From IMG/VR virus record IMGVR_UViG_3300048503_000037: a stretch of DNA of 20,000 bases. One strand, written 5' to 3'. The position numbers were made by a program, and so were the translations under genes. The notes below the pieces were generated by a model. That model did no database searches. It was not told the DNA's origin and worked only from the letters and a program-made list of their open reading frames with translations. Shown piece after piece: positions 368 through 19,659 of the stretch. Position 1 is the first letter of the stretch. Every line of letters starts with the position of its first letter. The DNA comes from an uncultured virus (IMG/VR IMGVR_UViG_3300048503_000037). Its lineage: Duplodnaviria; Heunggongvirae; Uroviricota; Caudoviricetes.

Positions 368-766
368 TTATTCTCCGGTGGTAGGCGTGAATTGTTTTAC
401 CGTCCTGATGAACTGGCAGGGCGACGTGGACATTGCAAGCCGCGTGGGATGGTCGGCGACACAGCAGCCATCGGAAGCCCAGCCAGGATGCCGAAGCGAA
501 TCGCCGTGAATCATAAAACTCAAAGCGTCACGGTCGTACATCTCGCTTCCCGGCAACGGAGTGAGATGGCAAACGATCGGTCCTTTTTCGGGATCATCGA
601 ACCATTTTCCCATCGCGTAGGTCGCTTCTGGCAGCGGGCCATGGCCAACGATAGCCTCAGAGTCTACATTATCTTTATCTGGTCCGTTCCCAGCATAGCC
701 CGTCGAGACGTAGGCACCGGATGGGTTGAAGTAGCGGCCGGTCGGGATTTCAAAGGTCCACCACAT
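368..766 (-). CDS. Tlde1/DUF2778-family L,D-transpeptidase-fold peptidoglycan enzyme, candidate endolysin
   Basis: Motifs GYAG, GPLPxxxY, R..F.IHGD, and H-x10-SDGC (His/Cys catalytic pair). Start moved to ATG 766 (MWWTFE) behind GGAG. Confidence 0.8.
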   Translation of the reverse strand: MWWTFEIPTGRYFNPSGAYVSTGYAGNGPDKDNVDSEAIVGHGPLPEATYAMGKWFDDPEKGPIVCHLTPLPGSEMYDRDALSFMIHGDSLRHPGWASDGCCVADHPTRLAMSTSPCQFIRTVKQFTPTTGE

Positions 767-831
767 GCTGTGCTCCAGAACTTCCGCACCGTGTTGGTTG
801 CGCCCTGTAATACGGTGCCTATACAGCGGCG

Positions 832-960
832 TCAATCAGAACCTGGATTCGGTTGGCAGACTTTCTTATCCGTGTCGGGGAGTGCCGCGAGATGTGTACC
901 CTCTGGGCAGCTAAAGCCCATTGGGGAAACAAACATGCCTCCCATAGGAAGATTGTCCAT
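832..960 (-). CDS. Possible 42-aa peptide (MDNLPMGGMFVSPMGFSCPEGTHLAALPDTDKKVCQPNPGSD)
   Basis: Manually read ORF filling the gap, with a Cys pair. No clear RBS. Confidence 0.3.
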   Translation of the reverse strand: MDNLPMGGMFVSPMGFSCPEGTHLAALPDTDKKVCQPNPGSD

Positions 961-1492: not shown

Positions 1493-2055
1493 GCTACCTC
1501 TTTGGCCGTTCTCCAGCCGCGCAACCGACTGCCCAGGCGCGGGCGGTGTCGGCACGGCGATCTGATACACATAGTAGCCCGTAATCACCTGCGGGGCCAC
1601 TTGCCAGTTGAGTATGTTCGCGTTGAACGGTCCCTGCCCCGGCACCGTGAATGGAATCACAATGCTGCTTGCGCCGGTCCCGTCCGGCGAGGTCACGGTC
1701 AGAATGCAGACTTGGCCGACGCCGGGATCAGGTTCGCGGGCACGGTCACAACCATCTGCGATGCGTTGGAATCGGCCACGGCTGGCGTCAGTGGGCAGTT
1801 GATGGGGTCATTCGTCGTCCAGACCGGCACCAAGCCCGCTGGCAAGGTCGTAGGCATTCCGAACTGGCCCTTGGGAAACGCGGCAAAGAGTCCTGTCTGA
1901 CCGGGCAGCAGACCTGCGCCTGGTGACGGTTGCGCCGCCGTGAGCCTCTGCACCGCCGCCGTTAGGTCCGTCACCGCCTGCTGGAGCTTGGCGAGTCCCG
2001 GCTGCTGCGCTTGGCAGGGCAGGGCAAGGAGCGCGATCAGGGCCAGTCTCTTCAT
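1493..2055 (-). CDS. Signal-peptide protein with Ig/IPT-like beta region, apparently split by a 1-nt frameshift near 1725
   Basis: MKRLALIALLALPCQAQ starts at 2055 (ATGA overlap). QMVVTVPANLIP continues naturally as GVGQVCILTVTSPDGTG in the -1 frame. The 3' end is uncertain because that frame runs into the 1136..1492 gene. Confidence 0.6.
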
Positions 2056-2539: not shown

Positions 2540-3049
2540 CTACACCTTGCCGATGCCCTCGACCGGGTTCGTGTCGCAAGCGTTGTTCCATGCCGTGTTG
2601 TACTGGCTCTCAGGCGAATGGAAGATGCTGCGCTTGAAGCCAGGTACGAGCACCGCAACCTTCGCCGCTGCGTCTGCCGCAACTGCCGCCTGGTGCATGG
2701 CCTGAGTCTCTTCGTGGGCACCCACAGTGACCGGGGCCGGCGAGTTGGCCGTCAGGATAGCGATGACCGCAGTGATGCCAGCCGTGATGATGTTCACGTA
2801 GAGGGCGACATTCGGCGGAAGCGGAAGCGTGTCGAATACCGCTGTGAAGGCGTTCATGAGTTGGAGCACGTTCTGCGCGGTGGTGCCGGGAGTCCAGTTC
2901 TGAACGGCGAGCAGAGCCGCGTCATAGGCGTTCATGGCAGCGATGCCGTTCGGGGTGTTGAGTTGGCCGGTGGCGGCGAGCAGCGACTTGATTGTCGGTT
3001 CGATTGCGGCCATCAATGCGCCTGCGGTCTTAGTTGCGTTTTTGCACAT
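2540..3049 (-). CDS. Hypothetical Ala-rich protein with a hydrophobic segment (169 aa)
   Basis: AAAGGA RBS, GC-rich third codon positions, hydrophobic VALYVNIITAGITAVIAIL. Confidence 0.85.
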   Translation of the reverse strand: MCKNATKTAGALMAAIEPTIKSLLAATGQLNTPNGIAAMNAYDAALLAVQNWTPGTTAQNVLQLMNAFTAVFDTLPLPPNVALYVNIITAGITAVIAILTANSPAPVTVGAHEETQAMHQAAVAADAAAKVAVLVPGFKRSIFHSPESQYNTAWNNACDTNPVEGIGKV

Positions 3050-3076
3050 GGGTTTGGTCCTTTCGGTTGTGCTGCG

Positions 3077-3394
3077 TTACTTGGTTTGCGGCGCTTCCAC
3101 CGCGTTCAATGCTTTGCGGGCCGCTTCAATCATGGCGACAGCCTCGTTTAATATGCGCAAGTTCTCATCTCCATATTTTGTCGCCTTAGCTTGATCGTCC
3201 ATCAGTTTCACGATCATTTCCTGCGCCCCCGGCAACGTGTTTGGAATTCCTGTATAGCCGCCGAGATCCACTGTTGCAGTAGCACTGTCTAAGTCCTGAA
3301 AAGCGGTATAGACACCTTCCCGTGCCAGTTGATCCATCTCTACAGTATCGAGATAGCGGAGAATATCGTCGCGTTGCTGCTTGGTCTGCGCCAT
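3077..3394 (-). CDS. Hypothetical helical protein (105 aa)
   Basis: GAGG RBS before ATG, fits the operon. Confidence 0.8.
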   Translation of the reverse strand: MAQTKQQRDDILRYLDTVEMDQLAREGVYTAFQDLDSATATVDLGGYTGIPNTLPGAQEMIVKLMDDQAKATKYGDENLRILNEAVAMIEAARKALNAVEAPQTK

Positions 3395-3414
3395 GGTTGC
3401 CTCGCTCCCTCACT

Positions 3415-3732
3415 TCACGGGTTCTGGCGCAATCTGCCCTGCTCGTCAACCGGCAGACCGGCTGCATTCGTGCCAGGGACCGGCGTCACGGTCGTTGTGA
3501 CGGTCTGCTTGTTTTCCACCACCGTCACCTGCGACTCGGGCGGCAGCGGCGATTGCTTAAGGTAAGCCAGCACTGGCACCGCAAAACCGAATAGCGCCAG
3601 CTTGCCGATGTTCGCCCAGCCGGTCGGCGTGAAGTTGAATACCGAGGGCGCGACAATCACGCCACCGAGGGCGCTTGATGCGCCGCCAATGCCAGCGGAG
3701 ATCAGCGAGTACAGCCAGGGCTTCCAGTTCAT
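3415..3732 (-). CDS. Holin-like two-TM membrane protein
   Basis: Two hydrophobic helices and a hydrophilic C-tail, AAGGAG RBS, located upstream of the peptidoglycan enzyme. Holin role is inference. Confidence 0.6.
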   Translation of the reverse strand: MNWKPWLYSLISAGIGGASSALGGVIVAPSVFNFTPTGWANIGKLALFGFAVPVLAYLKQSPLPPESQVTVVENKQTVTTTVTPVPGTNAAGLPVDEQGRLRQNP

Positions 3733-4037
3733 GGGCGCTCCTTGTCTTTCAGCGGTATCCTACACGACCATTCGACAATTTTGTACGCCTGATCTTTTGT
3801 AGCGTACACTGTCCCGCGCCGAAAACTGTCCTCCACATAGGCATACCATCCGCCAGAATCATCCGGCCACGCATGGCCACATTCCTCTCCATTAGAACGA
3901 AACCAAGTTGTTTTCCGAAGAGCGCCTTGCCCCTCCAGCATCGTGCATCCATAGCTCGGCCAAGGACGAAAGATTGCACACGGGAGCACCACCCAGATGA
4001 GAAGTAGAAAAGACGCGAAGCCGATAACAAATTTCAT
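3729..4037 (-). CDS. Hypothetical membrane-anchored/exported protein (102 aa)
   Basis: Hydrophobic N-terminus. AAGGAG RBS lies within repeat copy 1. Confidence 0.75.
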   Translation of the reverse strand: MKFVIGFASFLLLIWVVLPCAIFRPWPSYGCTMLEGQGALRKTTWFRSNGEECGHAWPDDSGGWYAYVEDSFRRGTVYATKDQAYKIVEWSCRIPLKDKERP

Positions 4038-5488: not shown

Positions 5489-5823
5489 TTACTTCGTGCC
5501 CGTGTTCAACTGCTGTGCAACTGATACGGTCAGCAGATAGACCAGGCTTTTCTCACCCGTAACGCAAGGGGTTGTTGTGACTGAAGTTGGAACTGCAACT
5601 GTGTTGTTAGCCGGGTGAATGAGAATAGGATCACCAGCACTGCATTGAGAGTGAGCAGCCCATAGGATTTCTGGATGCGAGGCACAAACATTGTCGGCTT
5701 AGATTCGGGATGGTTAAAGGCACAAGCTGCAAGGGGCGGTGCAACAGGTGCTGTTTGGGCAGGGGTAGATGCCTTGCCGAGAACAGCCACAAACAGAACC
5801 ACGAGTAAAAGTACTTTTTTCAT
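5489..5823 (-). CDS. Small secreted Cys-containing protein, frameshifted near 5700
   Basis: AAGGAGG RBS and signal peptide MKKVLLLVVLFVAVLG. The -1 frame gives ADNVCASHPEILWAAHSQC...QQLNTGTK with TAA at 5489-5491. Confidence 0.65.
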
Positions 5824-5838
5824 TTTGTCCTCCTTATG

Positions 5839-7060
5839 TTATGGACAAGGTATTTCGGTGCCGACAAGAATGCCGCCGCTTAGCTGGAACCGTCTGCAAC
5901 TTCCATCTACCGTGTCTTTCCAGATCACACCATTGATAGCTGAGTCGCTAAGAGTAATATCCCCCTGTGACCGTACCGCTGGTGCTGCTGCGCCGGAGAT
6001 TGCTTTACCTTTGAGCGCAAACAGCATCAATCCACCATATCCGTGTATGGATAGGAGACAGATACGCCTTTTTGCACGCCCGCTGCATAAGCCGGGGCTG
6101 ATGACATTGACGTGTAAATCGAGGAGGTATCTGGCGTAGCAAATTTACCTAAGTATGTGAGGATACCACACTTATACTCCCATACGCTGCAATCAACCTA
6201 TCGTTTGGTTGAGTCGTGGTCAAGGTTGGCGTCGTAGCTGTCCATTGGATTCCGGCACCAAGTGGATTGTATGTCGTCAACATTGCAACACCACTACCAT
6301 CCACACAAGAGGATGATGCAGCCACGTTGGTGTACTCAGCTACGCTCATACCATTATCCCACAACCTTATATGCCGTTGCGGAAACTGTAATTGTACCAC
6401 CGTTGACATTGCAAGCAACTGCTGACCATACATTGTGGTCACCGATAGAGATTTACACTTGCTGCTGTTGTGTAGGTGTTCCCTAAATTGTCTGTTACAC
6501 CCGGTAATGCCCCCTCAGCATTTCCGCAATTTACAACGATGGCATTTCCAGCCGTCACCGGATTGGGGAGAGTCCCTGTACCATCCGAACTTCCCTGCAC
6601 AAATACTGGCTGCAAAATGCCAGTTGTGTTCGCGCTGAAAATGGCGGCGGCGTTGTTAGCATCGGGAGCTACAACAGTCTGCGTGCCGTTAAACGTCTGG
6701 CTCTGATTGTTCAGCGCCAAGTCTACAGGATTGGTTAGAAGATTCAGTGCACCGTTGATTGAAACATTGTGCGCTGACAGGTTCGCATCTGGCATCAGCG
6801 CGGTGGCTGCTGTCGAACCGGAGACTAGGATTTCTGTCTGTATGTTAGAGGGATCGTGGACCGTGCATACATCGCCGCTATCGCCGCTTAGGTAAGGTGT
6901 AAGCACTAAATTCTTGTCAAAACACAGCGCCGAGTCACCGGGCATATCCGTTACTAGTTGATCCACGTACGGAGCGTAAAATTGCAGAGCCGAAGACCGC
7001 CTTGGTATACTCGCTGGAAAAATTGTAGTTTGGCAGAGTGATCCCAAACGATGCCACAGG
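5839..7060 (-). pseudogene. Frameshift-fragmented 3' end of the giant spike gene (sequence error or decay)
   Basis: ORF pieces 6439..7047, 6149..6442 and 5839..6030 lack convincing RBSs and join through frame changes into one continuous beta-rich sequence ending GSCRRFQLSGGILVGTEIPCP. Confidence 0.7.
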
Positions 7061-10000
7061 TCCGGTAACCCGCAGAGTTGTTAACTGTGCTGACTCGCAT
7101 ATTCAGCATTGCTGCCTGATCCGAGCTAACCACCTGCTGTATGTCGCCTAAACCAGGCTGGATGGTGTTTGAGATGGTGGCAGTGGAGATTGCAGCCTCT
7201 AACCGCGATACTCCAGGATCGGTAAGATGCAGGATTTCGCAATTGGTCGCGGGGTTGTCTGGATAGTCACAGAAAAAATACCTATTAGGATAAAAGGGTA
7301 ACAATGCGCCTGGATCAGCAAAACTGTTCCAATAATATCCGCAAATGTTGCTTCCCGCTGTCTGACCGGGTTGTCCTGCTACTCCTGCTGTAGTGCAAAC
7401 CGCTGGGTTGGAATTCAACGATGTCTTGGACTGTTGACTCAACCACGTGCTGATAGTCTGTGTGCAGTTAGCAGCTACAGGAGCATAAACACTGCTTGGA
7501 ACTGGTAGCAGTGTTTCCGCCGTGTAGAGATAACCCTTGGCGTGAACCTGTTGCATATACGAGAAAAGATTTGCTTCGGTGGTTGCCTGTGCGGTGCCGT
7601 TAAGACAATCCTGCGATCCAAGCTGTGATACAAGGATAGTGCTACCCGGCGTGACGCTTGGAAAGTTGGGATTCGTGGAAAAGGTGGCAGCTTCATTCGC
7701 GGCGCTATCTCCACCTGCTGATTTTTGCACGATGGTTACACCAGCATACAATGGATCATCGCGCTGCTGTTGCGGAAGCGCATATTTGCAGGACTCATAT
7801 CCTGCCCCGGTCGAGCCATCGGGTACTCCTGTAGATGTAGCGTCAAAGGTGAATTGATTGGTTCCGGGCATCCCTGTAACTGTCGCCACAAAACCGTTGA
7901 GTGCTGTATAAGAGCCGCCAAAAGTAGAGAGCAGCAGCGCATTATTCACGACCTGATTGTTGGTGTTAGCCTCTGTGCATGTTGCGATATGGCTTGAAAT
8001 GGTGCAGCCTGAGATTGCATCTTCACTCAATGCTCCCACTTGGCAGCTACCCGCTACAATCTGCCGTGAGTCGCCCATGTCCACAAGCGTTTTTCCTGCC
8101 AGTGGGCTGACATACCCACCCCCGCCGCCAGTGCTTGCAATGCTGACTGTGCTTCCAACAGTGCTGACCGCTATGCCTGCCCCGGCTGCTATCGTTACTG
8201 CAGTGGTGACGCCGTTGACGCTGGGTACGCCCCCGCCGCCGCCAGAGCCGCAGTCGGAGCCTGTGCCCGTTACAATTCCATTGTCATCCGTGTGTAAGCA
8301 CTGATGCAGCCCAGAGCCAGCCGCCTGTTGAGGCAAGCTGATTTGGCTGTGATGGATGTCTACAATCTTGTTGCCAAAGCCGTCGTAGAGTCCATAGCCA
8401 TCGTTGTTATACCCGTTCGGCTTGATAACACCGCCCAACTCAGGTGTAATTGTGTTGCTCTGGTTCAGGAAGTCAATCTCACCGGGAATTCCAGTTGCCG
8501 GGTTGAAGGTGATCGCTTCACCAAATTGGTTTTGAATCTGAGCCTGAATGTTCAGGTTCTGCACAGGCTGAGCGTTCACTGGGGCAGACGCGCCGATTTC
8601 GCTCCATGCCGTCCCGATTGGAGAACCGGCAGTGCCATAGGTAGATAGCCCTTGGAAATTCCACAAGGGCTGCAAGATTGGGCTTCCGCTCCAATACACC
8701 TTGTTGATGTTCGCCCAAGTGCCACCCGAGAACTCCATCGCGCCTTCCTGCACAGACTCTACACGGTATGGATCCGAAACGAGCGTGGTGCATCCTTCGC
8801 AATCGAAGTTGAATACAGGCGACGGCCCGAGAGACCCGTAAAAGATCGGACGGTACAAATACTTGCCGTTAAGGTTGGTGAGGGGTGATCCTCCAGCGTT
8901 GCGGTTATCGCGGGCGAGATTAAGATACCCAAAACCCGTGATGCCTTTGTAGCACATGGCGTTCGCGCCCTGCGGCGTGCTAAAGCTCGGTCCTGTCTGA
9001 CGCTGTGCAATGCCCATTGGGGTAGCGCAAGTCTCAGGCATATCCACGGCGTCTCCGGTAAAGTCGGAGTGCCACACAGCCTTGTCAAACCAGGTGTCCA
9101 GGTTGGCGTACACCGAGTTATATGCCGAAGGCTCGACTACCATGTTGTCAAAACCTTCAAAATCGTTGATCCCACCCGCGCCAGCCGGGAAGTCTGAGCG
9201 GTGGCTCCATGTTCCACCATTAACGTAGGGAGCGCCTGAGTCAAACTCCAGATTGCTAACTTTCAGTCCAAGATCGGTGGACGCGCTCAAGATACCGATA
9301 CCTGTTGCAAAAACCATGTCGTGCTGGTTTCCCTTGTTGGCGTTGTTGGTTACCCACAGCCCGATAAATCCAGAGTCTATTTCCAGATTACCCACGTCCT
9401 CTCGGCTATACGGTCCTCCGAACATTGCTGATTGAGTTTGCAACACGCCTGGAGTAGGGGTATCAACAGTCACCCCATCCCACGTGCTAAAGACGGAGGC
9501 ACCCTGTAGCGCTGACCCGGTCGGGGCGAACGTAGATGCTCCTGATACCAGAGCTACCTGAATCGGGATAGCCGGGGGGATAAGTGGGGATAGGTTGGTA
9601 CACTGAGCATCAAACTTGGACGTGCCGGAATCCCAGCAAGCGAAGGGGCCAAAGACAATAGTTGGGGCAACAGAGCCGCATCCTGTCGGAGCGGTCGTCC
9701 ACACGGCAGAGGAAATGCCGCCAGAGGAGTTCGATGAGGCTGTACCCACGCCGACGAAGTTGGTTCCAGCATAGCCGCCGACACTGGAGCAAGTTGAGCC
9801 GCCAGCATTGAAAGCGTGAATCGCAAGGAAATTAGTTTGGGAAGTTGGGTGTCCGCCGCCAGCATTGGTGATGGTCGGGGTTCCGCAGGTGCCGCCAGTC
9901 AACGAGCAGGTTGCAGCTTCCCCGTCTCCGCCAGTCGGAATTACGTTTGGAGCCACCGTGCCAGTTAGACCAAAACCGGCATAGACGATTGTGACAGGGT

Positions 10001-11369
10001 TCTGCACGTGCCCGCTGGAGTCAGTTGTAACTGTAGCGAACTCACCACCGCACGGACCAGCGTAAATAGTTGGGCATCCAAGCCAGCTAGAAGCACTCTG
10101 TCCAAAATCCAGAATTTCTGTATTCGAGGCGGGGTAGTTTGTACCCCCGCCAGTTACGGTGCAAGCGTTAAGATGTCCGGATACAGTGGTACAAGAGACC
10201 GTCGCTCCAGAGCCACCTGCGTTAGTCTGATAATCGCCTGAGTCTTGAGCAAGACCACCATAGGCGTAGACAACATTTCCATTAGCGTCATGGTCATAGG
10301 TGGCAAGCATATAGTGGCCCGCCAGCCAAGCACAAGTTCCGCCGTTGCCCTGGACAACTGCTGTGTAACAAGCATGGGCAGCGGGGGTGTTATCCGTGCC
10401 CCAGATTCCGTACGCGGTGTCAGTCGTCTGGAACTGACGATCCACTGTAAAATGGGTGGCGTCAATAACCGACGCAATTTTGGCGGTGTTAGCGGTCGTG
10501 ATGGAGTTCGCAACGAAAGGCAAGCCCCCCGTCCAAGCTCCTGAGTTTTTGTTAAATGAGATGTATTTGCCCACGTCGGCAGACGTGAAATTCCAAGAGT
10601 AACCGTCAAGTGAGCCTGTGACGTTAACAGCATATCCCCCGCTAGACCAGCCAAAGCTCATGTATCCAAAGGATGGCTGCAAGTCGGCGATACCACCGTA
10701 GCAAAGGATGTTGCTGTAGACCGATGCCGCCGCGCAGTTAAGCGTGGGTCCAAGCTGATTCCATTGATACGTGCCGGTAACGTTCGAACATTGGAATATT
10801 TCTGACGTATTGGACGTATAGAAAGTACCATTGTTTGCGATTGCCGAGCACGTCGCCGAGGGCGCTCCTACTCCAACAGACCACTGCGGAACCCCGAGGT
10901 TTGTCGCCGCGCCATAGGCCGTGGTCGCACCTGTGCCACCACCGGGTATCGAAATAACACCGCTGATTCCTCCTGACTGCACGAAGTTCGTCCCGTCGCT
11001 GACCACCGTGACAGTGGTGCCATTTGTAATCGTCACACCGGTTCCAGTCACGCCGATAACCTGAATAGACTGGCTTCCGGTGGTAGCGTTCTCGATGGTG
11101 AATTGGAAGCCTGCTGCCTGGGGGGCCACAAGACTTCGTGTTGCGGTGAGCGAGACCGAGCTAATCACTTTGATAAAACCGGCGCTCATTTCGGGATAGA
11201 CCATCGTGTGATTTGCGTCAGATGTGAATGAAATAACTCCCGGATTGCGATTCGGGAAGACGCCGCCCGAGCCGATGTTGCCGGTCAATGGGATCTGCGG
11301 TGCTGGAACCTGCGCGAGGGCGCAAGGGGCCAAAATGGCGAGAATCAACAGTTTCGACAGATTTTTCAT
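6954..11369 (-). CDS. Giant tail-fibre/tailspike-like protein with signal peptide, beta-helix-like region and SGNH/GDSL esterase-like domain (probably extends to 5839)
   Basis: MKNLSKLLILAILAPCALAQ; fibre motifs NATTG..GTGVTI..SDGTN and IPGGGTGATTAYGAATNLG; tailspike-type NILCYGG..D / GTDNTPA; SGNH-like blocks MGDS, AGG, LGSQD, EILH. Confidence 0.8.
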   Translation of the reverse strand: MKNLSKLLILAILAPCALAQVPAPQIPLTGNIGSGGVFPNRNPGVISFTSDANHTMVYPEMSAGFIKVISSVSLTATRSLVAPQAAGFQFTIENATTGSQSIQVIGVTGTGVTITNGTTVTVVSDGTNFVQSGGISGVISIPGGGTGATTAYGAATNLGVPQWSVGVGAPSATCSAIANNGTFYTSNTSEIFQCSNVTGTYQWNQLGPTLNCAAASVYSNILCYGGIADLQPSFGYMSFGWSSGGYAVNVTGSLDGYSWNFTSADVGKYISFNKNSGAWTGGLPFVANSITTANTAKIASVIDATHFTVDRQFQTTDTAYGIWGTDNTPAAHACYTAVVQGNGGTCAWLAGHYMLATYDHDANGNVVYAYGGLAQDSGDYQTNAGGSGATVSCTTVSGHLNACTVTGGGTNYPASNTEILDFGQSASSWLGCPTIYAGPCGGEFATVTTDSSGHVQNPVTIVYAGFGLTGTVAPNVIPTGGDGEAATCSLTGGTCGTPTITNAGGGHPTSQTNFLAIHAFNAGGSTCSSVGGYAGTNFVGVGTASSNSSGGISSAVWTTAPTGCGSVAPTIVFGPFACWDSGTSKFDAQCTNLSPLIPPAIPIQVALVSGASTFAPTGSALQGASVFSTWDGVTVDTPTPGVLQTQSAMFGGPYSREDVGNLEIDSGFIGLWVTNNANKGNQHDMVFATGIGILSASTDLGLKVSNLEFDSGAPYVNGGTWSHRSDFPAGAGGINDFEGFDNMVVEPSAYNSVYANLDTWFDKAVWHSDFTGDAVDMPETCATPMGIAQRQTGPSFSTPQGANAMCYKGITGFGYLNLARDNRNAGGSPLTNLNGKYLYRPIFYGSLGPSPVFNFDCEGCTTLVSDPYRVESVQEGAMEFSGGTWANINKVYWSGSPILQPLWNFQGLSTYGTAGSPIGTAWSEIGASAPVNAQPVQNLNIQAQIQNQFGEAITFNPATGIPGEIDFLNQSNTITPELGGVIKPNGYNNDGYGLYDGFGNKIVDIHHSQISLPQQAAGSGLHQCLHTDDNGIVTGTGSDCGSGGGGGVPSVNGVTTAVTIAAGAGIAVSTVGSTVSIASTGGGGGYVSPLAGKTLVDMGDSRQIVAGSCQVGALSEDAISGCTISSHIATCTEANTNNQVVNNALLLSTFGGSYTALNGFVATVTGMPGTNQFTFDATSTGVPDGSTGAGYESCKYALPQQQRDDPLYAGVTIVQKSAGGDSAANEAATFSTNPNFPSVTPGSTILVSQLGSQDCLNGTAQATTEANLFSYMQQVHAKGYLYTAETLLPVPSSVYAPVAANCTQTISTWLSQQSKTSLNSNPAVCTTAGVAGQPGQTAGSNICGYYWNSFADPGALLPFYPNRYFFCDYPDNPATNCEILHLTDPGVSRLEAAISTATISNTIQPGLGDIQQVVSSDQAAMLNMRVSTVNNSAGYRTCGIVWDHSAKLQFFQRVYQGGLRLCNFTLRTWIN

Positions 11370-11370
11370 A

Positions 11371-12591
11371 TTAGCTAGCCACCTTTGGCGTGTACGTTCC
11401 GTAGAGCGGGTTGGTGCTCTGGTACAGGTACATCGTCACCGTCACGCCAAACTCATTGACGAATGTCACTGTAATGGGGGGATTGAAGGCAAAGGGGAAG
11501 CCGGTGCCGGCGTCGATGAAGGTGTGACTGCCTCCCAAGAGCAGCAGGTAGACGTTCTGCGCACTCGGCGTGTAAGGCCCGAAGGTCTGTCCAACCGTCT
11601 CGGCGCCCAGGCCGGCGCTCGGCAGGGCGTCGCTGGTGCTCAGCACGGCGGTTGTGTCGCTCGCGGTCACCGTTGAGGTCGCCCCGGCCGTCCCTACGCC
11701 GCCAAAGATGCGCGGCTGCCATGTGTACTGCTGGGTTGCGGTCTGCGTAGAAGCTCCAGTCGCCGTGAGTGTCACAGTCGTCGTTGCGATCGCGGAATGG
11801 TGGAAGCTGCCAACGATGGTGCCGGTTGTGAATGGAGAACTTAGGACTAGTGGCGAGTCAATCGAGTCAGTGTTGGTGATGTTGGCGCTCGACGGAACCC
11901 CGGTGTACGTCGCCACGCATGTGGGATTCGTGACCGTCTGCCCGAGTTCAAGCGATCCAGCGCAGCCGGTGAAGGAGTTGATAGTGAACCCACCGCCGCC
12001 ACTGCATAAGTTCCCTTGATTGGTGTAAACAGCGCCATTCCAGATATAGGGAACCAGGCAAGCTGTGCGCGCATCGAGGATGCTTATGTTGGTAATGCCG
12101 GTCGCCGCCGTAATAGTGCCGGTTGTTCCGCCCACCCGTGTCCAATCCGGCGTTAGAACGATCTCATACGGAAGGCCGTGGGCGTAGTTGATGGCTTCCT
12201 GGAGGCCGCCAGTGGCCGATGTGAGCGTGAATGTTTTGTGTGGATTGACTGGGTTCACGGTGATCGAGCAGCCGAAGCCTCCGACAGTCACCGCTGTAGG
12301 AACCACGATTTCAGAGTTGGCCGGAACCTGATCTTTGATGTAGATGGGGGTTCCAACGGCAAATACTGGGTTGAGCGGGATGCCGTTGGCGTTCGTTGTG
12401 CATAAAGAGGCCGCCGACCACGAGAACTGGCCTTGATTACCTTGAGGGATTGACCAGAGGCCGAAAGTGGAGGCGTAAAGCAGGCCTGCATCGTTGCCAG
12501 GGTTCCTGGTTGGTTGCCCAGGAGACTGCGCAGAGATCAACTGCCCTGCGCCCAACGCGATCATCGCAAGCCAAAGAATGAGTTTTTTCAT
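11371..12591 (-). CDS. Secreted fibre/spike-like protein, paralogue 3 (406 aa)
   Basis: Signal peptide MKKLILWLAMIALGAGQLISAQ; shared domain with GLQEAIN, LTPDW, ILDART; Ig-like Thr-rich C-terminus. Confidence 0.85.
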   Translation of the reverse strand: MKKLILWLAMIALGAGQLISAQSPGQPTRNPGNDAGLLYASTFGLWSIPQGNQGQFSWSAASLCTTNANGIPLNPVFAVGTPIYIKDQVPANSEIVVPTAVTVGGFGCSITVNPVNPHKTFTLTSATGGLQEAINYAHGLPYEIVLTPDWTRVGGTTGTITAATGITNISILDARTACLVPYIWNGAVYTNQGNLCSGGGGFTINSFTGCAGSLELGQTVTNPTCVATYTGVPSSANITNTDSIDSPLVLSSPFTTGTIVGSFHHSAIATTTVTLTATGASTQTATQQYTWQPRIFGGVGTAGATSTVTASDTTAVLSTSDALPSAGLGAETVGQTFGPYTPSAQNVYLLLLGGSHTFIDAGTGFPFAFNPPITVTFVNEFGVTVTMYLYQSTNPLYGTYTPKVAS

Positions 12592-12595
12592 GGGG

Positions 12596-13399
12596 TCACT
12601 GGTAGGGGATGTAGTGAACGGTGCCGGCAATGTTTACCACCAGGCAGGCGGCAGGACTTGTGCCGACGGTGTTGCAGTTCGAGGCCGCGGCGGTTGTGCC
12701 GCCCAAACCGACCTGTGAGGCCGCTACTGTGGGAGCCGCGGCGGTGAGAACCACCGTATTGCTGGTTGGACTGATCAGCGTGGGGCTGGTCTGGAGAACC
12801 GTCTTGCCCGTTCCCGTGGTTCCTGCGGCCGGAGTGCCACCCGAGTACGGCACCAGCGTCGATGTGCGCGCATCCAGAATCGTGGTGTTGGTCCCGGCCG
12901 TGGCGCTGGTAATCATCCCGGTTGTGCCGCCCATGGTCTGCCAGTCTGGAGTGAGGACCACGACATAGTGAGCCGAGCCGGCGAAGTTCAGCGCTTCCTG
13001 GAGGCCGAGCGTCCCAGATTGCAGGTAGTAGTTGGAGTGGGGATGGGTAGCCGGCAAAGAAACCGAGCAGCCGGAGCCAAGATAGCTAGCCAGGGTCGGC
13101 GTCACCGTCTCGGTGTTGCTCGGAACGCCAAGATCCACGATGGTGATGGGCGCGCTGGTGGAGTAGAGCGGGAACACCAGGCCGCCGGACGTGCCGTAGC
13201 ACTGGCCGGGATTATCCCAGCGCGTGCCCTGCGGGGTCGGTGAGGCGGTCCAGTGGGCGAAGTTGGCAGCGTAGAGCAATCCTGCGAGGTTGGCTGGGCC
13301 GTTGGCCGGGCTCGTCACGCTGGCTGTTGCGCTGGTGGTTTGGGCAGCAAGCGCCAGTGGCAGAGCCAGAAACGCTGCAAGCAATACTAATCTTTTCAT
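12596..13399 (-). CDS. Secreted fibre/spike-like protein, paralogue 2 (267 aa)
   Basis: AAAGGAG RBS, signal peptide MKRLVLLAAFLALPLALAAQ, shared domain, fibre-like VLQTSPTLISP and VNIAGTVHYIPY tip. Confidence 0.85.
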   Translation of the reverse strand: MKRLVLLAAFLALPLALAAQTTSATASVTSPANGPANLAGLLYAANFAHWTASPTPQGTRWDNPGQCYGTSGGLVFPLYSTSAPITIVDLGVPSNTETVTPTLASYLGSGCSVSLPATHPHSNYYLQSGTLGLQEALNFAGSAHYVVVLTPDWQTMGGTTGMITSATAGTNTTILDARTSTLVPYSGGTPAAGTTGTGKTVLQTSPTLISPTSNTVVLTAAAPTVAASQVGLGGTTAAASNCNTVGTSPAACLVVNIAGTVHYIPYQ

Positions 13400-13420
13400 G
13401 GCGATGTTGCTCCTTTGCAT

Positions 13421-13453
13421 AAAAGAAGGCGGCCAGTGCATATTCTGGCCGCC
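13421..13453 (-). terminator. Intrinsic terminator after paralogue 1
   Basis: GGCGGCCAG-8 nt-CTGGCCGCC followed by TTCTTTT on the minus strand. Confidence 0.8.
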
Positions 13454-13479
13454 CGGTGCATTCGATGGCTTGGTTGAGC

Positions 13480-14397
13480 TTACTTGCAGTTCCAGCTAAA
13501 GCTGTACGCTGTGGTGCTGGCCAGCGCCGAGGCCACAGAGACCGTCATAATGCCGTGGCTTGAGTAGGAGTTCGTCACGGTCAGGGTTGGCGGTGCTGTC
13601 GCTCCAGTGCTCGTGACCGTGCAAGAGCCTGGTGCAGCTTGGAACTGGCCGCTGTTCGCCCAAGTCTCGGTGAATACAGTGCCAGTGGTCGCGGTGCCGG
13701 TGGTGAATGAATAGGTGCCAGAGAGAGCGGTGCCTGTCGCAACTTTGCTGGTCGCGGTGCCTGCGGCCGCGCCTGTCGCCGCGGTCGGGGCGGTGTTGAC
13801 CCATGTTCCAGAGGCATACGCCGATCCATTCCAGACGTAGTAGGTCGGCCCGAGAGTCGTGACGTCTTCGACTATCACCGACGCATCACCCTTGGCCGCG
13901 CCGAGAATGGTAGCCGCCGTGGTCCCAGGGATCTGGTTGGCGATCGTCCACCAGTTCTTATCCAAGAGCAAAAGCGCAGGCCATGCGCCCTGCCCGTCGA
14001 GAGCGTTGATGCCCTCTTGGAGTCCGGCAGTGCCTGATTTCATCTGGAAGGTGTAGTGATTGTGGCTTGGCGCTACGGTCGCACCGCAACTGCCGGCGGT
14101 ATTCACGATGGCCGATGGCGTCACAACCTCCGAGTTGCTGGAGTTCGAGTCCGCAATCAGCACAGGCGCATTGGTGTTGAACACGAAGAAGTTGAGGTTT
14201 TGCCCTTGGCTGTTGCAGAGGCTGCGGCCCTGGAAGATGTAGGTGTTGGGGCTCTGCTGGTTGATCGACCAGAGTTGGAAGCTGGTGGCGTAGTACCAGG
14301 GCGCGGTGAACGGGGTAACGGCGGTTTGCGCTGACACTGGGGCCGCGCAGATGGCGGCAAGGATCAGCGCGACGATGGAGAACAATGCTTTGCGCAT
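13480..14397 (-). CDS. Secreted fibre/spike-like protein, paralogue 1 (305 aa)
   Basis: AAAGGAG RBS, signal peptide MRKALFSIVALILAAICAAPVSAQ, SGTAGLQEGIN domain, Thr-rich beta C-terminus. Confidence 0.85.
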   Translation of the reverse strand: MRKALFSIVALILAAICAAPVSAQTAVTPFTAPWYYATSFQLWSINQQSPNTYIFQGRSLCNSQGQNLNFFVFNTNAPVLIADSNSSNSEVVTPSAIVNTAGSCGATVAPSHNHYTFQMKSGTAGLQEGINALDGQGAWPALLLLDKNWWTIANQIPGTTAATILGAAKGDASVIVEDVTTLGPTYYVWNGSAYASGTWVNTAPTAATGAAAGTATSKVATGTALSGTYSFTTGTATTGTVFTETWANSGQFQAAPGSCTVTSTGATAPPTLTVTNSYSSHGIMTVSVASALASTTAYSFSWNCK

Positions 14398-14426
14398 GGC
14401 TGTGAAACTCCTTTGATGGTTGATGG

Positions 14427-16016
14427 TTAGAGTGGAAGCTCGATCCACGATAGAAGCGTCGGGGTCGGCGTAGTTCCGTAGTTGGCGAGCGTTGCCCCGT
14501 AACTAGCGCCAGCGGGCACGAGGAACGTCACTCCAGCATTACTCGGGCCTGCCGCATCACAGTTGTAGACTCCGGCTGAGATTACATTGACCGCAGCACT
14601 GACACCTGTGACGACAAACCCGCTACCAACGCAATTGGTTGCCTCTTGCACGGTGATCTCAACAAGCAGCGGTACTGTGCCTGCCGTGTATGAGCTGCCG
14701 AGCGCCCGAGAGCCAGTTACGTTGGTCTGGGTGACTGCCAGCGCGCACGGGACCGTAGCGGGGGCAATGTTCCCAGCGCCGTCATAGGTTGCGCAGTTCG
14801 TCGATGCGCCTGGAGTTGCAGTCTCAGTAGGAATCAGATTGCCTGTTCCTGGAGTATTCAGGTCAATCGTGGTTCTCGCTGGGGATGCAGAATCGGTAGC
14901 CGTGAACCGCTGAGTGAAGTTAAGGGTCGGCCGCTGTGTCTGCGCGACACCGTTGGCTGCCACGGTTTGATAGAAGAGACTTGGCGCTCCGGTCAGAATC
15001 GAGTAGGGCAGCGTCGGCGAATCCACATAAGCCGTGCCATTGCCAAGCAACACGTGATTGAGCGGTGCCAGACCGTTGAACAGATAGCCGGTGGCCGCGT
15101 TGACCGCGCCATTGATCCCGGCTCCCTCTACGTCCACACCCCAGCCAGGGAAGTTGGTGCCGACGCCGAACTTGCCCACGCCGGTGACGTTGTAGCCGCC
15201 GAAGTTCAGCGGGCCTGAGATGCTCTGCTGTCCGTGGTTGGCTGGCTGAGACAGGATTGGCACAGGGTAGAACACCACGCCATGATAGTAAGGCAGTCCA
15301 GTCGACAGGTTGTAAGTGCTGCCCGGTCCAAGCAGTTGCCACTGCATGGGGTAGTTGGGAACTGGATTGCCGTTGACCGTGACCATCGACACGTTGTAGC
15401 CGGTGCCGGTCGGCCATACTGCATCGTTGGCCACCACTTGGCACAGCGTGGTGTTGGTCGAGGCGGGACTGGAGCCAGAGGTCAATGCGGTGGACTGGAC
15501 GAAAGAGGCCGTCCCAGTTGTTTGACCTTGCAGTGTCTCAGTCCCGCTCGAAGTGGAGATGAATACATCCATCCCAACTGCCAATGCCGGTACGCCGCTC
15601 GATGGCGGGTTGACCACGAGTGTACCGGTGGCACCAAGAGTTGTTGCGGTCTCGGGACTGACCAGAGTCACGTGGCCGGCGGCGTCATACCACTCGTAAA
15701 CCGTGTAGTAGACGCCAGAAGGGAGCGATCCTCCCCCGCTGGTGGTGTTGACCGTCGCTGTTTGGGGGTTCTGGATGCCGACGACAGAGCCATCGGTCGA
15801 TGTCGCGCACGTGTTGACCGTGGCGAGGTTGACTCCACATCCTGCGATGAGGCCTTGCTGGCTCGGGGTCAGCGTGAGGATGGAGTTTGAGGAGGGAATG
15901 CCGTTGGCGCTGCGGAGGTTGCCGGTCAGCGTTACCTGGGCATTGGTGATGCAGGTTTGGCTATGCGCCACGATAGTCAACATGCAGAGGATGATTGGGA
16001 GCAACTTGAGCGGCAT
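14427..16016 (-). CDS. Tail-fibre-like protein with signal peptide
   Basis: MPLKLLPIILCMLTIVAHSQ (alternative ATG at 16121); GGSLPSGVYY..SPE module, YQTVAANGVAQTQRPTLNF, tip-like NVTGSRALGSSYT...TFLVPAGASY. Confidence 0.8.
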   Translation of the reverse strand: MPLKLLPIILCMLTIVAHSQTCITNAQVTLTGNLRSANGIPSSNSILTLTPSQQGLIAGCGVNLATVNTCATSTDGSVVGIQNPQTATVNTTSGGGSLPSGVYYTVYEWYDAAGHVTLVSPETATTLGATGTLVVNPPSSGVPALAVGMDVFISTSSGTETLQGQTTGTASFVQSTALTSGSSPASTNTTLCQVVANDAVWPTGTGYNVSMVTVNGNPVPNYPMQWQLLGPGSTYNLSTGLPYYHGVVFYPVPILSQPANHGQQSISGPLNFGGYNVTGVGKFGVGTNFPGWGVDVEGAGINGAVNAATGYLFNGLAPLNHVLLGNGTAYVDSPTLPYSILTGAPSLFYQTVAANGVAQTQRPTLNFTQRFTATDSASPARTTIDLNTPGTGNLIPTETATPGASTNCATYDGAGNIAPATVPCALAVTQTNVTGSRALGSSYTAGTVPLLVEITVQEATNCVGSGFVVTGVSAAVNVISAGVYNCDAAGPSNAGVTFLVPAGASYGATLANYGTTPTPTLLSWIELPL

Positions 16017-19233: not shown

Positions 19234-19659
19234 ATGAAGCATACAATCACTTTGGCTCTTGTCTTGGCGGCCTGTAGCGCGCCCGCGTGGTCTCAGGCTG
19301 TCAAGCCAGCTCTCCAGACCATTCAATATGCTCTGGCGCCCAGCCAGCACGGCACGGTTCGCGTCGTACCCTTGTCGCTGGCAGGGGAATACGCGGGGAA
19401 CCTCGGCCCCTTGCACATCAAGCTGCATCTGCGTGTCACCAACCAGGGCGAGCTGGCCGGCACTCTTGACGGAGACGACGTGACCGGCATCAAGGTTGAC
19501 AATTTCGCCACCGCGCAGAGCCTCGAAGGCTACACACTTTCGTTCCGCATTCCCACGCTGCCGGCATTCTGGACGGGGGAAGTCGGCGCCGATGGCACAT
19601 TGCGCGGCGCCTGGCGCCAAGGCGGCAATACTCAACCTTTGAAGCTCGTTCGGAGGTAG
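19234..19659 (+). CDS. Secreted small beta-barrel-like protein (141 aa)
   Basis: GAGGGG RBS, signal peptide ...APAWSQ, beta-strand pattern ending GxWxQGG..PLxLxR. Confidence 0.8.
   Translation: MKHTITLALVLAACSAPAWSQAVKPALQTIQYALAPSQHGTVRVVPLSLAGEYAGNLGPLHIKLHLRVTNQGELAGTLDGDDVTGIKVDNFATAQSLEGYTLSFRIPTLPAFWTGEVGADGTLRGAWRQGGNTQPLKLVRR

Follow-up and report, generated by a model that had tools for sequence, protein, structure and literature searches.

Leader-bearing genes in the window

The stretch of DNA analysed here (the window) comprises 20,000 nucleotides of IMG/VR record IMGVR_UViG_3300048503_000037, an uncultured virus assigned to the Caudoviricetes, and carries six consecutive genes whose products each begin with a putative Sec-type signal peptide (leader) that ends directly before a glutamine (Gln). 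Our subject is this module, which we read as a candidate set of exported, disulfide-folded receptor-binding proteins. The window is about 98% identical to positions 22,752-44,071, reversed, of a 58,114-bp IMG/VR record referred to below as G001. The genes of the module and one further leader-bearing gene, named after its start at 2055, are listed here, with a hyphen at the predicted cleavage point and with cysteine (Cys) counts.

14427..16016, minus strand: putative first fibre gene, 529 amino acids (aa), start codon ATG at 16016; 19-aa leader MPLKLLPIILCMLTIVAHS-Q (AHS-Q); 8 mature Cys
13480..14397, minus strand: 305-aa protein; leader MRKALFSIVALILAAICAAPVSA-Q (VSA-Q); alpha/beta N-domain at about 38-198, beta-sandwich at 200-305; 4 Cys
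12596..13399, minus strand: 267-aa paralogue, N-domain in common with the 305-aa protein; leader MKRLVLLAAFLALPLALAA-Q (LAA-Q); 4 Cys
11371..12591, minus strand: 406-aa paralogue with the same N-domain and a C-domain at about 196-406; leader MKKLILWLAMIALGAGQLISA-Q (ISA-Q); 6 Cys
6954..11369, minus strand: giant putative fibre/spike gene, open for 1471 aa in the window; leader MKNLSKLLILAILAPCALA-Q (ALA-Q); adaptor-like N-domain at about 40-133
5839..6953, minus strand: 3' portion of the giant gene, which the window has out of frame (open reading frame (ORF) pieces 6439-7047 and 6149-6442)
5530..5823, minus strand: small leader-bearing protein, 97 aa (110 aa in G001); leader MKKVLLLVVLFVAVLGKASTPA-Q (TPA-Q, alternatively GKA-S); 2 Cys
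1699..2055, minus strand: 118-aa leader-bearing protein in a lysis-like region; leader MKRLALIALLALPCQA-Q (CQA-Q); 1 Cys; not fibre-like

All genes of the module, like the 2055 gene, are on the minus strand, and the module genes are tightly packed in one late-strand block in which stops and starts overlap or abut: the 406-aa gene starts 4 bases past the preceding stop, and the giant gene 1 base past the stop of its own predecessor. A Shine-Dalgarno-like motif lies upstream of five of the seven leader-gene starts. The listed ORF of the first gene extends to 16154, beyond the ATG at 16016. The 267-aa and 406-aa paralogues share 43% identity (alignment A1), and the giant protein continues after its N-domain as a long, variable, Cys-rich chain with a visible GDS motif.

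The leaders described in the earlier note, on six consecutive genes and the 2055 gene, could be read directly from the sequence. In each of the seven, 1-3 basic residues lead into a hydrophobic stretch free of charges, and a small-x-small site abuts the Gln. Inspection of the seven leaders found no lipobox and no twin-arginine (RR) motif; the Cys residues inside leaders have Pro or Ile at -1, which we take not to fit the lipobox pattern. Inspection of the C-termini of the module proteins found no PEP-CTERM or other C-terminal sorting signal.

Clustering and conservation of the leaders

Leaders were called with a home-made score of the n-, h- and c-regions (threshold 4.0). The criteria for a Sec signal peptide cut by signal peptidase I (SPase I) were a positively charged n-region, an h-region of some 8-18 uncharged, hydrophobic residues and a c-region in which positions -3 and -1 are small. 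Eight of the 68 greedy ORFs of G001 score at least 4.0, and the remaining 60 score 3.31 or less or are leaderless; the high scorers are the seven genes of the contiguous module plus the 2055 gene. High-scoring ORFs were also contiguous in genomes G002 (4 of 36) and G003 (3 of 54). Genome G005 has three among 61 ORFs, two of them adjacent fibre genes and one probably a spurious 89-aa ORF.

The leaders proved to be conserved in homologues, a point that the earlier note asked to have checked. In the family of the 305-aa protein (g322), 117 of 118 full-length homologues have a leader, 113 of them with [AGSC]Q at its end. In the family of the first fibre gene (g575; 332 matches), a leader precedes the mature region in 66 of the 70 relatives in which the mature motif was located. 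For the N-domain of the giant protein the score identified leaders in 30 of 35 homologues, and four of the other five were recognised by eye. ORFs from genome loci have a leader in 55 of 81 cases by score and in at least nine more by eye, the rest being mostly cut by the locus ends. In alignment A6 the leader sequences vary and the mature start, QIPAPQIPLTGN..., is conserved.

An exhaustive phmmer search with the mature giant N-domain (141 aa) against 1.84 billion representatives gave 1256 matches at E <=0.001 (representatives of 50%-identity clusters), 440 of them at <=1e-10. Among the best 150 of the 1256, a regular expression found the leader and motif in 121, with Gln at +1 in 116 of these, and about 17 further leaders were found by eye. 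Seven of the best 150 start with Met directly at the mature motif (e.g. MAQIPFSG...), as does P0143; these eight leaderless relatives begin at the predicted cleavage point. A Cys-poor leaderless branch is formed by P0160, P0184, P0198, P0208 and P0143, and also P0237, P0258 and P0283, with source contigs of 44-199 kb; P0143 and P0208 had no match in viral_contigs or metagenome_contigs. In the seven window genes, the junction of leader and mature region offers no start codon (ATG, GTG or TTG) that is in frame and has a Shine-Dalgarno-like motif, and a second, leaderless isoform is thus not evident.

Cysteine content

The six window proteins have mature Cys counts of 8, 4, 4, 6, 34 and 2, all of them even. 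The Cys-rich character that the earlier note saw in the mature regions therefore stands for these six, as even counts, but not for the 2055 gene, whose product has 1 Cys. The intact giant protein of G001 has 40 mature Cys, and an extra gene of the G001 module encodes 4. C61 and C104 never vary across 80 sequences of the 305-aa family, and C259 and C304 hardly do.

A bias toward even Cys counts is an accepted signature of disulfide-bonded exported proteins. Within the giant N-domain family, the 136 leader-bearing proteins contain 1.67% Cys, and the 132 of them that contain Cys divide into 101 with even and 31 with odd counts (binomial p 7.6e-10). The eight leaderless relatives contain 0.59% Cys, with odd counts in six. 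The even parity and the Cys-poor leaderless relatives support oxidative folding of the module proteins as the probable state, and, taken with leader conservation, they give computational support to the proposal of the earlier note that these proteins are exported and oxidatively folded. We consider it very probable that they are exported through Sec, cleaved before the Gln and disulfide-bonded in the periplasm.

Relatives, folds and gene position

The earlier note also ascribed tail-fibre or tailspike motifs to the mature regions. This did not hold for the window proteins themselves: in Pfam and PHROG scans, which covered 26 window ORFs, none of the seven leader-bearing proteins had a match, and the giant protein and g575 stayed without one even at E 0.1. 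The link to fibres comes instead from their relatives, fold and synteny. Some relatives of the N-terminal part of g575 carry Gp53-like_C C-terminally (60 bits against a cut-off of 24.9), and others carry Beta_helix together with K1-lyase_C (31.2 bits against a cut-off of 27). Relatives of the giant N-domain carry a GDSL esterase domain, collagen repeats or YadA_stalk, and an Ice_binding domain is found in one relative of the 305-aa protein. PF13472 is a precomputed match in the 99%-identical protein P0121; neither it nor PF00657 gave a match (E <=0.1) in the giant protein of the window or of G001, and a GDS motif is visible in the window sequence.

In the AlphaFold2 (AF2) model of the N-terminal part of the giant protein, residues 40-133 have a predicted local distance difference test score (pLDDT) of 85-95 and the remainder is disordered. 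In a fold search independent of Foldseek, the domain (residues 40-137) resembles the tailspike gp83 of Acinetobacter phage Solidus (PDB 24qj; Z 8.0, root-mean-square deviation (rmsd) 2.7 over 82 aa), the N-terminal part of CBA120 TSP4 (PDB 7rej; Z 6.3, rmsd 3.3 over 89 aa), PDB 6o38 (Z 6.3) and the capsid spike of phage Pa223 (Z 6.1). PDB 6o38 is titled "a chaperone-substrate complex" and is presumably a phage tail-fibre complex. By the tool's count, only 5 of 48,161 chains reached Z >=5, and the top four ranks are phage spike or fibre entries, if 6o38 is what we take it to be. Foldseek matched the domain to Solidus gp83 and CBA120 TSP4 with probabilities of 1.00 and 0.98 and weak E-values of 2e-3 and 1.7e-2. 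The AF2 model of the 305-aa protein (pLDDT 91.9) consists of an alpha/beta domain followed by a beta-sandwich; Foldseek found no match for it in the PDB at E <=0.001, and its best matches in BFVD are uncharacterised proteins of uncultured Caudovirales (E 5.9e-6). A PDB search with the single sequences of the 1848-aa giant protein of G001 and the 529- and 406-aa proteins returned nothing credible.

The proteins are modular. Proteins that share the giant N-domain range from 116 to 2230 aa and are unrelated outside it. Eight viral loci have the C-domain of the 406-aa protein (71-81% identity) after other leader-bearing N-terminal parts, and this C-domain is attached to five unrelated N-terminal parts, each with a leader of its own.

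Genomes G003 (90% complete) and G005 (with direct terminal repeats) have little in common with G001 beyond the fibre modules. The leader-bearing genes of both stand last in the structural operon, past genes of tail size, and are the sole fibre-like genes in the fibre slot. The order in G003 begins with TerL, an 818-aa protein, a 427-aa protein, a major head protein (phrog_14242) and three mid-size genes, and continues with a 1272-aa protein, two small genes, proteins of 551 and 578 aa and the three leader genes; the order in G005 resembles it and is followed by an endolysin. Because of the domains of their relatives, the fold, the modularity and the gene position, we regard the window proteins as probable fibres or spikes, and it is fairly likely that the six together are the phage's receptor-binding set.

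Viral context and host

Outside the window, G001 encodes TerS (phrog_51, E 1e-5), TerL (phrog_979, E 2.9e-30), DnaB, RecT, a RecE-like exonuclease, a primosomal protein and several HNH nucleases. Past the lysis-like region, proteins of 865, 582 and 437 aa are encoded in a row. The 437-aa protein is our lead for the major capsid protein (MCP): in the Atlas it neighbours viral clusters, and in one of these (score 0.98) 15% of the members carry SU10_MCP. In composition the 582-aa protein is like a scaffold protein, and the 865-aa protein occupies the portal position. Since PDB sequence searches with profiles of all three families found nothing credible, the names portal-like, scaffold-like and MCP-like are positional.

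In G001 and G002 the module heads the rightward block, next to the lysis-like genes, and the portal-like gene follows about 7 kb downstream; prophages have the module flanked by a holin-like gene on one side and the portal-like gene on the other. The terminase, the row of structural genes, DnaB, RecT and the RecE-like exonuclease in G001 answer the concern of the earlier note that the flanks might be those of an ordinary chromosomal adhesin locus: they are viral. A non-tailed, membrane-containing virus was considered and rejected in view of the terminase subunits and the portal-like, scaffold-like and MCP-like gene row; a membrane-matured virion, one of the options in the earlier note, is unlikely given the terminase. 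The virus is probably a short-tailed phage of soil-dwelling Acidobacteriaceae. Megablast with the window and tblastn with the N-domain and the MCP-like protein returned no hits from the 50,697 phage records that served as our set of cultured phages.

The N-domain shared by the 305-, 267- and 406-aa proteins (alignments A1 and A2) occurs at 64 loci in species-representative genomes, 61 of them titled Acidobacteriaceae, Terracidiphilus, Terriglobales or Acidobacteria. The other three (L049, L059 and L072) are titled as Verrucomicrobia or Opitutaceae metagenome-assembled genomes (contigs of 24 kb and 1.7 kb) and could point to a broader range of hosts or to phage contigs that were binned wrongly. 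In 31 of the 64 loci the N-domain gene has a homologue of the 865-aa protein no more than 10 kb away; homologues of the 582-aa, 437-aa and holin-like proteins are nearby in 26, 24 and 12, and the order is fixed. We regard the Acidobacteriaceae loci as prophages, not free-standing adhesin genes.

Gln occupies +1 after the leader in all seven window proteins. In two 400-kb chromosome stretches from two host genomes (L086-L105 of G007 and L110-L129 of G008), 15 of the 47 SPase I sites predicted have it at +1, against 0-2 Gln per genome at any one of +2 to +6 and a background of 4% Gln. Gln at +1 is thus an enrichment in the host and not a rule, and the phage appears to copy the host's cleavage-site habit. 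A Glu_cyclase_2 gene is present in all three of the host genomes tested for it, but also in 3 of 14 control genomes. As an observation on the host itself, Acidobacteriaceae seem to follow a partial "Q-rule" outside Bacteroidota. The Q-rule was described for Bacteroidetes, where it covers the majority of SPase I substrates (PMC5837995), and a word search of that paper gave no mention of Acidobacteria; the likeness to the window lies in Gln at +1, and the host differs in being an acidobacterium.

Comparison with known systems

The nearest experimental hint that leader-bearing proteins of the fibre slot may reach virions comes, by analogy, from the cultured Cellulophaga phage phi10:1 (GenBank KC821618; host Cellulophaga baltica, Assiduviridae), whose gp091-094 are annotated as "structural protein ... 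experimental MS/MS proteomics" (MS/MS, tandem mass spectrometry). These four proteins and the pectate lyase gp095 (L135 11848-18879) all have Sec-type leaders, those of gp091-094 ending in SAQ-T, FGQ-N, SAQ-T and NAQ-T (example, MKKILLLLLFISASLSAQ-T). The likeness to the window lies in four consecutive leader genes at the distal end of the tail module, with the leader ending before Gln or a small residue, and in the leader-bearing pectate lyase that follows. In contrast to the window phage, phi10:1 has a Bacteroidota host and a genome of long-tailed type, and tblastn found no similarity in it to the N-domain. The Cys counts of gp091-094 are 2, 0, 2 and 0, without the disulfide signature of the window module.

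The systems of CBA120 TSP4 and Solidus gp83, which are branched or adaptor receptor-binding proteins of T4 gp10 type, resemble the giant N-domain in fold, by the modest matches given above and at only 14-17% sequence identity, and likewise place several genes in a row and keep N-domains where distal parts are swapped. To our knowledge, CBA120 TSP4 and Solidus gp83 have no signal peptide, and they are taken to fold in the cytoplasm. Some phage late and accessory proteins do use Sec and are targeted to the envelope, among them signal-anchor-release (SAR) endolysins, spanins and superinfection-exclusion lipoproteins. These are lysis or exclusion factors, and we know of none with the architecture of a fibre, an adaptor plus a distal domain. 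Porphyromonas gingivalis phages have five leader-bearing Q-rule genes of unknown function, read by the authors of PMC10367356 as possible host-surface modifiers and not described as fibres, unlike our reading of the window proteins. A full-text literature search, which left subscription journals mostly uncovered, found no account of signal peptides on tailed-phage receptor-binding proteins.

A proposed route to the virion and its alternatives

We propose that the six genes encode fibres, spikes and small partners, each made as a Sec preprotein that would be exported to the periplasm and cut by SPase I just before the Gln. A host glutaminyl cyclase may then convert the +1 Gln to pyroglutamate, and the mature proteins would fold with disulfide bonds in the periplasm. 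The N-terminal adaptor domain of the giant protein may belong to the type by which tailspikes are docked on tails or on each other; the three smaller proteins share a different N-domain. Since the particle would be packaged by terminase in the cytoplasm, it would meet the fibres only once holin and endolysin open the envelope, and we infer that the virion is completed at or after lysis. Such late docking is physically plausible, because tailspikes of P22 can be added to particles in vitro. Taken as a whole, an exported, disulfide-folded receptor-binding set that docks at or after lysis is in our judgement somewhat favoured. The broader proposition is finely balanced: that a large, uncultured group of Acidobacteriaceae phages sends its entire host-recognition apparatus through Sec, disulfide-bonded and pyroglutamate-capped, to dock on fibreless particles once the envelope opens.

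We would like to note several points that weigh against this proposal. All support for the window phage is computational, and the leader calls rest on a home-made score. The six proteins of the window themselves match neither Pfam nor PHROGs, and the fold matches of the giant N-domain are modest (Z 8.0 and 6.3), Z 8 being a level that common folds often reach; the VIA fold search with the model of the 305-aa protein gave Z <=6.8 and no convincing solved match. The giant gene is frame-broken in the window. G001 is 60% complete according to CheckV, and leaderless fibres could therefore sit in the missing part. The place that the module takes in G001, G002 and the prophages is one that lysogenic-conversion genes also take. 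The annotation of phi10:1 is silent on leader cleavage, and co-purification could account for its structural proteins. Finally, periplasmic fibres would be diluted after lysis, when they would have to find particles.

The main alternative is that the proteins are exported but never join the virion, acting as secreted or surface proteins that might strip or modify exopolysaccharide from inside to free progeny, block superinfection or re-adsorption, or serve as lysogen adhesins. The export signals and disulfide signatures fit this view as well as ours; the genes lie beside lysis-like genes in G001, G002 and the prophages, their relatives contain sugar-acting domains (GDSL, beta-helix and K1-lyase_C), and the reading of the P. 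gingivalis phage Q-rule genes as possible host-surface modifiers (PMC10367356) offers a parallel. What counts for particles is the combination of a conserved adaptor-type N-domain with swapped distal parts, a hallmark of particle-borne receptor-binding proteins, together with the fibre slot of G003 and G005, which holds only these fibre-like genes, the tight packing in one late-strand block and the annotation of phi10:1 gp091-094 as virion proteins by MS/MS. On balance we consider a purely non-virion role rather unlikely, and we retain virion receptor-binding as the preferred role for the module.

It is also conceivable that the leaders are not working export signals and that the proteins are ordinary cytoplasmic fibres whose N-termini are otherwise used or removed. 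Export is indeed predicted here from sequence, and signal-peptide predictors misfire on some phage structural proteins, e.g. capsid proteins (PMC10367356). All three regions of a signal peptide can nevertheless be seen, with a cleavage site of AxA type, and five independent lines of evidence give good support to the view that the leaders are real export signals: the leader keeps its character while its sequence drifts, the mature N-terminus is conserved, the Gln at +1 matches host secreted proteins, a strongly even Cys parity is confined to leader-bearing relatives, and leaderless relatives start at the cleavage point. We therefore regard non-functional leaders as very unlikely. The natural leaderless relatives do indicate that the domain can work without a leader, and dual-start designs are familiar from phage lysis genes, so that each gene might use two start codons, with a leaderless cytoplasmic form in virions and an exported form at the cell surface. 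Against this stand the missing start codons with a Shine-Dalgarno-like motif at the junction in all seven genes and the even Cys counts, which argue that the main form is oxidised; such a double use is less probable still. An ordinary non-viral chromosomal adhesin locus, to which homologues in large Acidobacteriaceae chromosomal contigs might point, can practically be dismissed, since those homologues adjoin portal-like, scaffold-like and MCP-like genes and the window belongs to a phage record with terminase genes.

The assembly of tailed phages is taught as an entirely cytoplasmic process, and the routing of phage receptor-binding proteins through Sec would surprise phage biologists. If the preferred reading is right, virion assembly gains an extracytoplasmic last step tied to the timing of lysis, and such finishing of a tailed virion would lie outside the textbook pathway. 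Fibres could then use disulfides and pyroglutamate caps, which may aid persistence in acid soils, and host Sec, SPase I, Dsb and glutaminyl cyclase would be host factors for infectivity. The reading would also bear on the prediction of receptor-binding proteins and on their expression, for which periplasmic or oxidising hosts would be needed. In annotation pipelines and in the literature, a missing signal peptide counts as an argument for phage origin; PMC6199706, for example, takes the lack of one in phage targets of diversity-generating retroelements (DGRs) as support for such an origin. Leader-bearing receptor-binding proteins are not unique to the window, and docking at or after lysis is what we infer for them.

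Differences between the window and G001

G001 has the giant gene as a single 1848-aa ORF, and the window copy is split into pieces of 1471, 202 and 97 aa. The 3' end of the giant gene is 98% identical in the two, with nine indels between window positions 7066 and 5843 (the end of the G001 ORF). Over window positions 5640-7066, compared with G001 36,692-38,127, there are 11 short indels of 1-7 bases, spread over the last (3') quarter of the giant gene and the small gene that follows it. The frame breaks could be real decay, strain mixing or an assembly error.

The part of the first fibre gene that encodes its C-terminus is replaced between the two phages (window 14432-15123, G001 28,306-29,326), which are elsewhere 96-98% identical, and G001 has one more gene with a leader (MRWPLLLLLCCASVLA-Q, 4 Cys), which is missing from the window. 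The replacement and the extra gene look like a recent swap of a distal module.

Lysis-like region and other genes

Downstream of the module, the minus strand holds a lysis-like region (368-835, 1136-1696 and 2540-4037) encoding a Tlde1-like protein, a protein whose tail resembles a coiled coil and three small proteins with one hydrophobic helix each. Pfam and PHROG scans found no classical endolysin family in this region. Two of its genes are candidates for lysis functions:

3415..3732, minus strand: small membrane protein, holin candidate; relatives adjoin a leader-bearing fibre gene in 12 of 64 Acidobacteriaceae loci
368..835, minus strand: Tlde1-like (L,D-transpeptidase-fold) protein, endolysin candidate; phrog_24118, E 1.2e-18

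The product of 368-835 also scores 29.2 bits against PF10908, under the cut-off of 30.1.

Elsewhere in G001, a GroEL-type chaperonin (PF00118, E 3e-65; L010:6869-8629) and a cold-shock protein (L010:12187-12465) are encoded, and a homing-endonuclease-like gene of T5orf172/MUG113 type (L012:9755-10516) lies between the scaffold-like and MCP-like genes. The 865-aa protein in the portal position (L012:4832-7429) has a CxxC...CxxC arrangement (C234, C237, C254 and C257) that is invariant in 23 relatives (alignment A4); these cysteines have weak PDB matches to zinc-ribbon ribosomal proteins and could belong to an inserted zinc ribbon. At the border of the early genes, on the plus strand opposite the late strand, window positions 19234-19659 encode a 141-aa protein with a good lipobox (LVLAAC), a candidate lipoprotein possibly involved in superinfection exclusion.

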